Positions 2,277 through 61,880 of a DNA stretch of 64,000 nt are shown in pieces. The stretch comes from an uncultured virus (IMG/VR IMGVR_UViG_3300001605_000027). Its lineage: Duplodnaviria > Heunggongvirae > Uroviricota > Caudoviricetes. The stretch lies in the IMG/VR virus record IMGVR_UViG_3300001605_000027; one strand, 5' to 3'. The position numbers and the translations under genes were made by a program. Below the pieces are notes generated by a model. It had not been told where the DNA came from and ran no database searches. It worked only from the letters and a program-made list of their open reading frames with translations. How positions within the stretch are numbered: position 1 is the stretch's first letter; the number at the start of each line of letters is the position of its first letter.

Positions 2277-2615
2277 ATGTCGAACGGAAGTGATCTACCA
2301 GACGGATTTTTTGGCTATGTTTTAGCGTTTGTAGGGACCGCTATGGGCACATTGGTTACAACGATTGCGACTTTGTGGAAAGTATCGGAGTCGAAGAACG
2401 CTAAGGCGATCGAGGAGCAGCGACAGGAAATCATGACGCAGAAAGTCGAGTTCGCCGACGCAAAATCGCAGATGCGGACTGAGATTTCGATGGTTCGCGA
2501 AAACTTAAAAGCCGTCGAAGACGCTCGCCTTGAATGCGAACGCGACAGGGCGATGCTGACAGCCAAGTGTGAGATTTTCGAGGCACGGTTATCCAAGTTA
2601 GAAGGACAATCCTAA
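2277..2615 (+). CDS. Single-TM coiled-coil protein (holin or spanin-like candidate)
   Basis: One TM helix followed by a long heptad-rich segment; AAGGA upstream. Confidence 0.45.
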   Translation: MSNGSDLPDGFFGYVLAFVGTAMGTLVTTIATLWKVSESKNAKAIEEQRQEIMTQKVEFADAKSQMRTEISMVRENLKAVEDARLECERDRAMLTAKCEIFEARLSKLEGQS

Positions 2616-2854: not shown

Positions 2855-3189
2855 TCGCCATTCTCCTAACCCTCGCCACCTTCGCACCATCTCTACCCGT
2901 TGTCGAAGTCTGCGAGATCAACACCACGCCGAACTTCCAGCAGGTGATTTTGCGACGATGGCATCGGCTTGGCGAGGTCAACGGGCATCGCGTGACGGAG
3001 TGGTGGATACCGCGAAAAGAGACGACCACGGTGGAGCGATTTGGCGACCGCTGGCTAGTGCGATCGGACGGACGCGAGTTTATCGCACGGTCGGTGCGGT
3101 GGACTGAGACGCAGCACGATCCTGAGATGAGAGAGCGTAAGATTTTGTGCCCGGGTGATCGGGTGCCGTATTTGGATAAAGAAAAATGA
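2851..3189 (+). CDS. Hypothetical protein
   Basis: ATGA-coupled ORF in the operon. Confidence 0.55.
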   Translation: MIAILLTLATFAPSLPVVEVCEINTTPNFQQVILRRWHRLGEVNGHRVTEWWIPRKETTTVERFGDRWLVRSDGREFIARSVRWTETQHDPEMRERKILCPGDRVPYLDKEK

Positions 3190-32809: not shown

Positions 32810-35389
32810 CTATCGCTTAGTGACGACTACCATCGACGCGTCGACTTCGTCGCCCATGACCGAACGAACGATATCGTCGGCGATTCCAGTGGTAACGTCG
32901 GTATCGTAGTCGCCGGGGACAACTCCGGCCCAGCTATCGCGTGCCGCTGCATGCGTCGCTGCGTTGGATTCTTCGGTGCGGTCGATCATCTGACCGCCAC
33001 GGAACTTTGCGGCGATCCAGCCGCTGCCTTCGGGGTGCAAGAAATAGACGCCGTCGTGAATGCTAGTTGCCATCGGTGGTTGCCTTGATCGGAGAAAGAA
33101 ACGAATTGTGGACGCGGGCCACGGTGACCCGCCGCACAGAGCCTAACCACACTCTGCCTTAGGCAATGCCAGCGGCTTTTGCCATGTTCGTCGGGTCGAT
33201 CAACACCAACGGCCGGTTGTCGTCGAATCCGTTGACTACTGCGTGCCACAACGAAGTTTCGTCGTTCCATTTTTCCGATTTGAGCGAGTCGATGGTGTCG
33301 CTTGGTTGCAGTTTAACCGCCATACCGTGCCGCCAGCGGACGGCACCGCCAGCCATCGTGTCGATGCCGCCGAATCCATCGCGGATTAAGTACCGGTCGC
33401 CATTGTTGGCTTCGACGATTGCGTCGGTGCCCTTGAATCCGTAGTCGCGTTCTACCGATTCATGTTCGATTAACTTGGTCATTTCTGTTGCCTTGATTGG
33501 TGGTTAAAAACATCCGCCCGGTTCAACTACCTTCGATCACAGCCCGGGCTTTGCTGTTGTCGATTCGTACGATTCTAACGATCTCCACCGGGTGGAACAT
33601 CGCCACGATAGCGGCGATCGGATCGGTGGCTAGCGAGCCGTCGCAATACGAACGCCACGTGCCAGATAGGTCACGGGCGACCCACTGCGGGCCGCTTCCC
33701 TTCAATCCGTCTTCGGATCGGAAGTCGTCTTCGAGTTTGACGATTACGTTGTAAGTGCTCATCGCATCCCCGCATTGACTTCAACGGCTTGGCAGTATTC
33801 CGGCCCATAAACGCGATACAATCGCGTCGCGTGGGCTTCGGTGTAGTCGCCGCGTTCGTCGCAAGCAACGAATACGCGGTAGTCTTTGAGCGTGCCCTTG
33901 GGGCTTCGCATGCGGCCCGCCACGGCTGTTTTTAGCCGTCGGGCTTTGGCGTCGATTTGCTTCGGTGTCATCGCTTGAACGCTTCCAATGCTTGGGCCGC
34001 ACGGTTGACAAGATCAAGGGCTTCGGCGACGGCCTTGATACGTTCGTCGGTTGCCGGTTGCTTGGCGACGTCGCCAGCGATCGACTCGACGTCTTCAATC
34101 GATTCAAGTAGCTGATTCATGACGTCGTCAAGAATGTCGTCGGGCGTTGGCCCCGTCGGATCGACGAACAGTTCGATCGTTAAGCATAGCCCCGCTGAAT
34201 CGCATGCCGACACGTGATAGTTGCCATGGCCGTCAAATGACTTGTGGCCCATCGCAACGGCGACCGCGTGATCGATCTGGCCAGCGTACGCTTGCAAGTC
34301 GGCGATGTCGCCGCCGGTTGGCTTGGCGACGCTGTCGATGGCTTGACGTATCGACGCGTGCAAAACTTCGTCACGTTCGCCATCGCCCCATTGGTCGATG
34401 TCTTCATACCAATCGGCGATCAATTCGACGGCTTCGTCGAAAGTATCGGCCCGCTCGATTGCGTTGTTGTCGCTGATTGTGTAGCCGTTAAACGTGGGCA
34501 TGGTGGTTGCCTTGTGGGGTGGTGGTTAGTGAAAAACGGAACGATTGGCAAAACGCAGCGTTTGCCAGTAGGTGTCGACCATCGCCGGTGACCAGACGCC
34601 ACGATAGCGAGTGTATCGACGGGCCGAACGGATCATACGGGCCGCTGTCGCTCGCCACTCTGGCGACGCGTATGGCGTCGCGGTCAATTGCTTCCAATTG
34701 ACGTTTCGGCCTTCGACGATTGAGATTGTCGACCATCGGCCAATGTAGTAGCGGCTGGTTGCCATCGGTGGTGCCTTGTGGGGTGGTTGTGGTTGGATCA
34801 AACGCGTTCAACGGCTTGCCATGTGTTGCCGCTGAGGCAATCACTCATGTATCGGGCTTCGGCGTTGACGTTGCAGCAATCGTCGAACCGATCGGCTTTG
34901 ACCATTGAATTGCTGAGAACGACATAGCCAACGCAATGGCTGATTGCTGCCATGCGTCGCGAATATGCCGCACGGGCGATACTCTTGAACCGATCGAACG
35001 ACAACCCGCCCTCGCTGCATGGCCAGTTGCGTTCGACATAATTCTTGACGCGTTCGGCGGCCATGCCGTTGTGGTGGAAGTTTGCCGCCGACTCGCCGGT
35101 CGACTTGGCCCATTGCGTGTCGCGTTGGATATTCTGGCTGTTGGTCATTGGTGGTGACTTGGTTGGTTGGTTGGCTGGCTGGTCGTGGTTGGATCAAACG
35201 CTATCGCCGCCTCGCGACGATTGCCGAGACTTGATCAAGCCCATTGTCGAACGCGGCTTTCGACACCTCGCCGCCTACGATCGGCACTCGCACTTCGGCG
35301 TTGCCGATGTGGCATACGAGTTCGTTGCCACGCACTACCATGCCCAGGCCACGCGACAAGAATCGCTTCTTTGCTGTTTCTACTGACAT
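32810..35389 (-). CDS. Array of eight small early genes (35201-35389, 34798-35148, 34526-34765, 33968-34501, 33759-33971, 33523-33762, 33159-33482, 32810-33073)
   Basis: Co-oriented ORFs downstream of the promoter at 35449-35485; most are preceded by CAAGGCA(A)CCACC-type leaders. Confidence 0.65.
33107..33157 (-). ncRNA. Pistol-ribozyme-like catalytic core lacking P1
   Basis: GCAGAG-UGUGG-UUAGG-CUCUGU-GCG-[GCGGGUC..GGCCCGC]-GU-CCACA. Confidence 0.5.
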
Positions 35390-59842: not shown

Positions 59843-60058
59843 ATGCAACGCGGAAACAAGAGAATGTTCAACGGATACAAAGTCAGCCATCCAAAACTTG
59901 ATTGCACGTATTCGGTGGTTTTGTCAAAGGAACAATATCACGAAGTGTGCAACCATCTTGGTGAAATGGGCGAAGGCGGAAAGTGCGAACGAATGTCAGA
60001 CTTGTCGATTGACACTAAGTTTGATTCGCTGGTTAAAGAATTGACGCGACACTATTAA
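59843..60058 (+). CDS. Small early protein
   Basis: First ORF after the promoter; its stop overlaps stem I of hammerhead 1. Confidence 0.55.
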   Translation: MQRGNKRMFNGYKVSHPKLDCTYSVVLSKEQYHEVCNHLGEMGEGGKCERMSDLSIDTKFDSLVKELTRHY

Positions 60059-60110
60059 CCCACTGACGAGCCGGTGCGATTCCGGCGAAACGCCCACGGG
60101 CGTATGGGTT
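60057..60110 (+). ncRNA. Type I hammerhead ribozyme 1
   Basis: AACCCA-CUGACGA-GCCGG(ugcgauu)CCGGC-GAAA-CGCC(cacg)GGCG-UA^UGGGUU; complete core and three stems. Confidence 0.9.
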
Positions 60111-60142
60111 CGACAACAATACTTCAACAGCAAGGCAAGACG

Positions 60143-60484
60143 ATGGCAACGACAGTAAAAACAACCCCAGCCCAACAAGCCGCCGAGTTCATGGGCCGAT
60201 GCAATTCGCTCGGTTGGAAAGTCGAACGAATCGACGATAGCGTAGTCACAATTACTAAGCGATTCGCAGCGGGCGACCGCGACGGCCTTGTCGAATGCGA
60301 CATGGAATACTACGACGTTTTGGGCATGTGCCCATTGAAAGGCGGTTCAGTTTGGGGAACTGACTGCGGCGGGCTTGGTGCGATATCGGCACTTAATAGC
60401 GGCGTGTTCCGAATGAACAAATCGGGGTCTGGTGGTAAGCGTTTTGCCGCCGAAGTTCGCAAGATCATGCTATCAACCCACTGA
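60143..60484 (+). CDS. 113-aa hypothetical protein bracketed by the hammerheads
   Basis: ATG 60143 after CAAGGCA; GGSVWGTDCGGLGA motif. Confidence 0.65.
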   Translation: MATTVKTTPAQQAAEFMGRCNSLGWKVERIDDSVVTITKRFAAGDRDGLVECDMEYYDVLGMCPLKGGSVWGTDCGGLGAISALNSGVFRMNKSGSGGKRFAAEVRKIMLSTH

Positions 60485-60527
60485 CGAGATCCCGGCGGGG
60501 ATCGAAACGCCAGCGATGGCGTATGGG
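60477..60527 (+). ncRNA. Type I hammerhead ribozyme 2
   Basis: CCCA-CUGACGA-GAUCCC(ggcg)GGGAUC-GAAA-CGCCA(gcga)UGGCG-UA^UGGG. Confidence 0.88.
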
Positions 60528-60557
60528 ATGCAACGACAACCACCAAGGGCCGATCAA

Positions 60558-61880
60558 ATGCTGAGAGTCATATTCCATTCGAACCGACAACGCGACGCGT
60601 TCATTCGCACCAGCGGCATTCAGTCGAATGAGATCGTTTCGGTAGGTTGTGGCGTGTTGTATGTCACTCAATCGGCGATCGATTGGTCGATCAACGATTG
60701 GGTGATGCGAGTCGAGAACGTTTAACAATTCAAGGCAACCACCAATGGCAACCGCAACCACCGTGCAAAACGCACTAGGCGAAACGTTCGACTTGTCGAC
60801 CATGACTGGATGGGAAGTGAAGAAACTGTGTCGTGAATTGACCGCTGAGTCGGTCATGTATGGCCACATTGAAGACGTAGCCAAGCGGGATTGGCTACGC
60901 GATCAGCGTGATATCGTCGACGCTGAGATTCGTCGGAAGTGCTACTAAGGATCAACCATGACAAATGACTGGCTACCACCACTCGCCGCCGACGCCGAGC
61001 AAGGCCGCGAGATAGTGNAACNTACCCCGACCGGATCANNCGTCCATGCGTCGGTATGTTCAGATCAATAGCACGCGGCGACCGTGCGACGTTGTATCGT
61101 GCTGGCACTGGTCAGTACGGTGGCCGTGGATGGGTGCCGATTCATAAGGTGCCGGTTCATCTGCGATCGTCGCTTTACGGAGTCCCCAACAACGATTGGC
61201 AGGATGCGTATTTCAAGACGCCGCAAGCAGCGGCAAAGATGCTTCACTCGATCGGTAAAGGCCCGGCCAATGTCCGCCAATCAGTGTAAGTGCCAAGGCT
61301 TCGGCTACTTCTACGGCAGCGAGATTCTCGGCTGGCGTCGCCGTCCATGGGATCGACTGACGTGTCGCGACTGCGGCAAGCCGTCGGCATGGCAGCGGCT
61401 ACTGTACTGGTGGTACGGCTATCGAAGCAATGCCCAAGCGATCGAGAGTCCGGCGAGTTATGTGTTGTCGAATCCACAATTCAATGGCGGCCAAGAGTGC
61501 GACGTCGAACGCGGCCCGTGTTCGTGCGGGGCTTGGCATGATGAAGTCGACCGTCCAACGTTTGATGATGATGTTTTTTAGTTCCTTTAACCTCACTAGG
61601 TGAAATGATGACAGTGGCAGAAGTTGAGCAAGTCGAACAATCGAGTCGACAAGATAATTCGATCGAGAGCCGGGTTGCCCGCAGTCTGGCAATCGCTCGA
61701 TATATCCGGGCCGTAGCGAAGTTTGAAAACGCGTCGCGAGACTTCAACGACGCGTGCCAGCACGTCCGCGAAGTTGCCGAGCATGGCAGCCGTTTCGTTA
61801 CAACCGTCGATTACAAGAGCTACCTTGTAACCGTCGAAAACGACGGATCGTTCGAAGTCGTTCCGATCGACGTTATCTGA
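60558..61880 (+). CDS. Further small early genes (60558-60725, 60745-60948, about 60958-61289 with n's, about 61269-61581, 61605-61880)
   Basis: Co-oriented short ORFs, the first two with CAAGG leaders. Confidence 0.5.

Follow-up and report, generated by a model that had tools for sequence, protein, structure and literature searches.

A candidate pistol-type ribozyme lacking P1 in an uncultured tailed phage and in other phage contigs

Introduction

Solved structures of pistol ribozymes show a coaxial stack of P1, the pseudoknot and P3, with P2 running alongside and parallel to the pseudoknot and an A-minor contact between the linker and P1 (available text of PMC11300833). It has also been reported that canonical pistols cut between the G and the U of a GU junction, that this cleavage-site junction is strictly two bases long, and that a mutation disrupting P1 causes a substantial loss of activity (available text of Harris 2015, PMC4604425). 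In addition, purine 32 is naturally A or G, and an A32G mutant is active (available text of PMC6154101). Here, we analyzed an element on the minus strand, at positions 33157-33107, of a 64,000-nucleotide (nt) stretch of DNA from an uncultured virus (IMG/VR record IMGVR_UViG_3300001605_000027), which as a whole is called the window below. We consider it likely that this element is a phage-borne self-cleaving ribozyme of the pistol type which has neither P1 nor the P1-P2 linker, with a predicted cut between G33113 and U33112.

The element resembles the pistol class (Rfam RF02679) in that the 5' strand of P2, UUARG, a 6-nt pseudoknot strand, GCG, P3, GU and the 3' strand of P2 follow each other in order, and a 6-base-pair (bp) pseudoknot is formed onto the P2-P3 junction. 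Like canonical pistols, it occurs in a phage and near other ribozymes. Unlike RF02679, it contains no P1 hairpin and no A-rich linker, the strand that supplies its pseudoknot is free and precedes a P2 with a fixed length of 4 bp by one base, and its length is about 50 nt compared with the 68 positions of the model. The element is thus a variant of the pistol rather than an ordinary member of the class, since the core is kept but P1, the linker and a score above the Rfam cut-off are missing. It also resembles the pseudoknot hammerhead, as described in the available text of PMC11300833, in the pistol helix connectivity and overall fold and in the 6-bp pseudoknot, whereas the hammerhead core given there (CUGANGA and GAAA) is absent from the window element. 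Neither a P1-less nor a permuted pistol was described in the literature that we searched; the original pistol alignment, which was outside the coverage of this search, could hold such variants.

Layout of the element and searches in the window

A pistol-like core without P1 had been proposed in an earlier note made from the letters of the window, and we recovered this core base for base at 33157-33107 on the minus strand, with all elements in the order described. The start of the element one base past the upstream TAA was also as noted: the stop codon occupies 33161-33159 (minus strand) and is followed by G33158. The parts of the element are as follows.

33157-33152, minus strand: 5' strand of the pseudoknot, GCAGAG, free on the 5' side and in no hairpin loop
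33151, minus strand: one-nucleotide spacer, U, between the pseudoknot strand and P2, which could pair with A33107
33150-33147, minus strand: 5' strand of P2, GUGG, corresponding to the four P2 pairs in the alignment of relatives
33146-33142, minus strand: UUAGG loop, equivalent to U29-G33 of the env25 pistol, with G33143 at the purine-32 position (Rfam alignment)
33141-33136, minus strand: 3' strand of the pseudoknot, CUCUGU, located in the P2-P3 junction
33135-33133, minus strand: GCG, in which G33135 is the equivalent (Rfam alignment) of G40, the general base of pistols (role from the available text of PMC6154101)
33132-33114, minus strand: GC-rich P3 hairpin of 19 nt, with eight pairs and a 3-nt loop, as read from the sequence and by the descriptor
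33113-33112, minus strand: GU junction, aligned to the GU junction of the Rfam Pistol model, with the predicted scissile bond between the two bases
33111-33107, minus strand: 3' strand of P2, CCAC, and A33107

The two pseudoknot strands, GCAGAG and CUCUGU, are complementary over six positions, one of which is a G-U pair, and UGUGG and CCACA are complementary over five. Compared with what defines a pistol, we found a covarying P2, a P3 hairpin, a 6-nt pseudoknot, UUARG and GCG, and the strict two-base junction at the cleavage site. In place of a P1 hairpin, the pseudoknot strand abuts P2 and is preceded by unrelated coding sequence that closes with a stop codon, and in place of the A-rich linker between P1 and P2 there is a single spacer base. 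No second 6-nt partner for the junction strand was found within 60 nt upstream by a script or within 60 nt downstream by eye.

When the Rfam pistol model was searched, as the earlier note had advised, it gave a partial match in which positions 24-68 of the 68 in RF02679 were aligned to 33150-33108. The score of the window copy was 22.4 bits with an expectation value (E) of 0.15 in a 1.1-kb search, and the gathering cut-off of the Rfam Pistol model is 34.5 bits. We then described the pistol core by a descriptor consisting of P2 of at least 4 bp, UUARG, six unspecified bases, GCG, a P3 hairpin, GU and the 3' strand of P2. This descriptor matched the window once, both strands being searched, and it matched 300 dinucleotide-preserving shuffles of the window twice in total. 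A pseudoknot partner within 60 nt was present in one of these two shuffled matches and an abutting partner in neither, and neither reached both 5 bp in P2 and 8 bp in P3. By themselves, the Rfam match and the rarity in shuffled sequence make a modest case, because very many windows had been screened.

Relatives and the pseudoknot partner

In order to look beyond the window, we compared its sequence and proteins with phage collections. The 3 kb around the element gave no match by blastn against the phage collection. The 107-amino-acid (aa) protein encoded directly upstream has one relative locus in viral contigs, L001, with 72% identity, and no relatives were found for the 87-aa and 209-aa proteins. 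In L001 the homologous spot is a 29-nt spacer without the element, which is also absent from the rest of this 22.8-kb record.

The earlier note had also suggested a descriptor search for P1-less homologues showing covariation, and such homologues were found. A pattern in which the window's pseudoknot strands were fixed and P2 and P3 were left free matched two viral contigs, L002 and L003, which retain the window's pseudoknot and have flanks that cannot be aligned with the window. Compared with the window copy, both have G-C instead of U-A at one P2 pair and a different P3, which in L003 is a 5-bp stem with a UUCG loop.

We next used a pattern that is free of the pseudoknot and fixes two P2 pairs, UUAGG, GCG, two P3 pairs and GU, and scored each match by the complementarity to the junction strand among the six bases ending three bases before the pattern. 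Viral contigs yielded 44 loci with 41 unique matches, 26 of which scored 6/6 while the other 15 scored from 0 to 4. In metagenome contigs, with at least 122 loci, 14 of the 118 unique matches listed scored 6/6. In cellular genomes, with at least 120 loci, none of the 118 unique matches listed scored 6/6; their counts were centred on 2-3, and the best score, 5/6, was reached by 9 of them. This bimodal score, together with the cellular-genome control, provides the main support for the abutting strand as a real pairing partner. Among the viral and metagenome matches listed, together with the window copy, the family comprises 34 unique members with 18 distinct pairs of pseudoknot strands, and the abutting strand is complementary in all 34. 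Because dozens of relatives on phage contigs keep the P1-less design, we suggest that the element is probably a working natural variant. When the large terminase of the window was compared with five carrier records (G001-G004 and G006), no match was obtained, an empty answer that carries no weight on kinship.

Covariation in the family

The structure of the family was examined in an alignment of 27 sequences (A2), the window copy and 26 viral members. In A2, pairing is 100% at all four P2 pairs and at five P3 pairs; for the pseudoknot and the pattern-fixed columns such pairing is given by construction, because only sequences with a perfectly paired pseudoknot were taken into A2 and four pairs were dictated by the pattern. 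Compensatory changes were observed at the two P2 and three P3 pairs that the pattern left free. In P2, G-C is replaced by U-A, A-U and G-U at two pairs; one U-A pair is common to the window copy and L038, with G-C elsewhere. In P3, double changes occur in 13-16 of the 27 sequences at the three unconstrained pairs, and the hairpin varies among relatives in both sequence and length (14 to 23 nt), yet it always pairs. Changes on both sides were also seen at four of the six pseudoknot pairs. Most members have U or A at the single position that separates the pseudoknot strand from P2. This base pairs with the one following P2 in just 51.9% of the 27 sequences, and the family is thus described as having a one-base spacer before a 4-bp P2. 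The UUAGG loop is invariant in A2, though it was fixed by the search pattern.

With R1, a covariance model based on P2 and P3, two more copies that the pattern had missed were recovered, and the UUAGG core is retained in both of them. These copies alter pairs which the pattern had fixed, with a P2 of GGGA/UCCC, whose innermost pair is A-U, in L168 and an A-U pair at the base of P3. R1 found a single copy in the window. When P1-less copies were compared with the Rfam model, nine of them (the window copy and eight in relatives) scored 21.6-32.9 bits, and several aligned only from model position 23-25 on. Since these scores stay below 34.5 bits, standard annotation misses P1-less copies.

Placement in operons

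Members of the family have a fixed place at stop codons. Five phage records carry 5, 4, 3, 2 and 1 copies, which stand between consecutive open reading frames (ORFs). Among 16 elements that we examined, the upstream stop codon ends at -1, 0 or +1 relative to the start of the pseudoknot strand in 12, at -11 in one, and inside the element in three, once at +6 and twice at +15 (the UAG of UUAGG), the latter offset being forced by the search pattern and hence uninformative. The next ORF, where called, begins 20-62 nt downstream, often behind AGGAG. A stop at -1 to +1 was counted 20 times among the 34 members listed compared with 5 times among 226 chance matches. The window copy is flanked by the following ORFs.

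33159-33482, minus strand: upstream ORF of 107 aa without a family match, whose TAA ends one base ahead of the pseudoknot strand
32810-33073, minus strand: downstream ORF of 87 aa, whose ATG lies 33 nt past the element, behind the CAAGGCAACCACC leader

The leader that the earlier note had placed downstream of the element is present as CAAGGCAACCACC at 33087-33075 (minus strand), and the next ATG is at 33073-33071.

Right after the 3' strand of P2, a hairpin of GACA, 3-5 nt and UGUC is seen in L003, L007, L019, L025, L030, L031, L041, L042 and others; it is lacking in the window copy, L002 and L009-L011. This hairpin could protect a new 5' end or bind a protein.

Other ribozymes and ribozyme-like motifs

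The placement of the element had been said to mirror that of hammerheads in the window, and this description holds for two type-I hammerhead-like motifs, both of which overlap a stop codon and precede the next start.

About 60057-60110, plus strand: type-I hammerhead-like motif 1, with CUGACGA, GAAA and a GUA site; predicted cut after A60104
About 60475-60529, plus strand: type-I hammerhead-like motif 2, with CUGACGA, GAAA and a GUA site; predicted cut after A60523

Stems II and III differ in sequence between the two motifs, with the pairing kept. The overlapped stop codons of the preceding ORFs are TAA at 60056-60058 and TGA at 60482-60484, the latter inside CUGA, and the next start follows each motif after about 35 nt. 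Rfam lists neither motif, in the whole-window scans or in a 1.4-kb scan, so that both are identified by reading the sequence. In a relative, L172, a Twister-P5 ribozyme match above its cut-off (2413-2494, minus strand; 47.8 bits, cut-off 37.6) stands one gene upstream of a P1-less copy. In L001, a weak match resembling the hepatitis delta virus (HDV) ribozyme was observed at 2905-2984 (plus strand; 25.3 bits, cut-off 50, E 1.8), shortly before the L001 counterpart of the gene for the 107-aa protein.

Pistol cores in which a P1 hairpin is located 3' of P2 were found in L012, L018, L021 (identical with L047), L024, L045 (identical with L206) and L285. Their P1 lies 7-10 nt downstream of the 3' strand of P2, and its loop is complementary to the junction; in L018, for example, it has a 6-bp stem and a 6-nt loop, and four of these forms have perfect Watson-Crick loops. 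Rfam puts L045 above the cut-off by aligning an upstream stretch as P1. The window element has the same core and the same 6-nt pseudoknot as these rearranged forms, and the same pattern finds both, whereas the rearranged forms keep a partner in a hairpin loop and the window element does not.

Predicted mechanism

The comparisons establish the sequence, the structure (through covariation in relatives) and the constant placement at stop codons, and from them we infer cleavage, its site and its consequences for the messages as follows. Once the leftward operon is transcribed, the 51-nt RNA would fold, with the free strand 33157-33152 pairing with the junction 33141-33136 and replacing the loop of P1 as the source of the pseudoknot. 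By analogy with solved pistols, G33135 would act as the general base that activates the 2'-OH of G33113, and G33143 at the purine-32 position would complete the active site together with a bound metal ion. The chain would then be cut between G33113 and U33112, leaving the message of the 107-aa protein with a 2',3'-cyclic phosphate end behind a compact fold, and leaving the message of the 87-aa and helix-turn-helix (HTH) genes with a 5'-OH, 39 nt before AUG. In this way the polycistronic message would be divided, each unit beginning with a 5'-OH and ending in a structured 3' terminus.

The absence of P1 could be accommodated in the geometry of the fold. In the stacked arrangement of solved pistols, the far end of P2 would lie near the junction of P1 and the pseudoknot, with the linker running back along P1. 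Because of this expected proximity, P1 and the linker could be replaced by a one-base link to a P2 of fixed length.

A bolder proposal, to which we attach little probability, is that P1-less pistols are an active natural subclass of about 50 nt that is gated by the ribosome through its placement at stop codons. If this were true, the pistol core would tolerate three ways of delivering the pseudoknot strand, namely the canonical one, P1 located 3' of P2, and the P1-less one. A ribosome reading to the stop codon would have to unwind the pseudoknot strand and P2, and cutting would take place only before the arrival of the first ribosome or after its departure, which would tie the fate of the message of each cistron to its translation.

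Alternative explanations

Here, we need to consider several points that weigh against a self-cleaving pistol without P1. Catalysis and the cut site are predicted by analogy with canonical pistols, and the geometric argument is likewise drawn from described canonical structures. P1 and the linker are absent, and disruption of P1 cripples the canonical pistol according to the available text of PMC4604425. The 22.4-bit score of the window copy falls under the 34.5-bit cut-off, and no pistol appeared in two Rfam scans of the whole window, one at the gathering cut-off and one with E up to 10. When the window copy is folded with nested pairs, competing pairings are preferred, GCCUAA with UUAGGC and the junction UGUG with CACA; the nested-fold z-scores of -1.3 and -0.06 are unremarkable, the program being unable to score pseudoknots, and we give this folding no weight. 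The element is dispensable, because L001, the sole relative found for the upstream gene, does not carry it. The selection of the A2 rows described above also belongs among these points. As to the pairing of GCCUAA, which contains the stop codon, with UUAGGC, it would form 6 bp at 33164-33141 (minus strand) and hide the catalytic loop; when read by eye, this complementarity is weaker in L002 and L003.

A conserved structured RNA of pistol descent that does not cut, and that works as a stabiliser of 3' ends, a protein-binding site or a signal to the terminating ribosome, would fit with the loss of P1 and of the A-rich linker, both of which are important for canonical activity, and the fixed place at stop codons would also suit a signal linked to translation. 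However, no member seen, not even the copies recovered by R1 alone, has lost UUAGG, GCG or the two-base GU, and this conservation of the core counts against a purely structural pseudoknot because such an RNA would not need it. The offset of the stop codon varies from -11 to +15 and sometimes falls inside the element, which argues against a recoding signal acting at a fixed distance, and genuine ribozymes stand in equivalent places. We regard a non-catalytic RNA as an unlikely explanation, and the self-cleaving P1-less pistol as the preferred one.

The forms with P1 located 3' of P2 (L012, L018, L021, L024 and L045), which appear among the same pattern matches, raise the question of whether the window copy is a canonical or permuted pistol whose P1 is supplied from elsewhere in the transcript or in trans, in which case the junction strand would have its true partner there and not in the abutting strand. 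This is very improbable in our view: the 60 nt on either side of the window copy hold no other 6-nt partner, the abutting strand is complementary in all of the 34 members listed across 18 strand pairs, and the upstream sequence is unrelated coding DNA. A chance resemblance or a GC-rich hairpin of an intrinsic terminator might be suspected from the Rfam score under the cut-off and from P3, which is a strong GC hairpin, but the descriptor gave just two matches in 300 shuffled windows and the element belongs to a conserved family with covariation, so that we give this explanation hardly any credence. An intrinsic terminator was rejected, since no terminator-like site was called at the element and no U-run follows the stem.

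If the P1-less pistol is accepted, several consequences follow. P1 is depicted as a constant feature of pistols, and a natural form that is widespread and lacks it would redefine the minimal pistol and would offer a smaller scaffold for RNA engineering. An entire phage-borne branch would also have escaped the Rfam model. The order of stop codon, ribozyme, short leader and next gene, repeated up to five times per operon, provides a testable setting for the role of ribozymes in phages, and hammerhead and twister ribozymes can occupy the same slot as the P1-less pistol.

Genomic context of the element

The window is a tailed-phage genome. Searches with PHROGs matched a large terminase, a portal, a tape measure and a fusion of head protease and major head protein, and further matches were obtained for a DNA polymerase clamp, a helicase and methyltransferases. 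The element is located in a leftward run of small ORFs without a known family, and the gene of an HTH protein comes after the 87-aa ORF. The record contains a few N bases at 61018-61030.

A leader beginning with CAAGGCAA recurs a few bases ahead of the start codons of small genes on both strands, and is probably a ribosome-binding region. Leaders of this type were observed at four positions.

33087-33075, minus strand: CAAGGCAA-type leader
33496-33487, minus strand: CAAGGCAA-type leader
60130-60143, plus strand: CAAGGCAA-type leader
60732-60746, plus strand: CAAGGCAA-type leader

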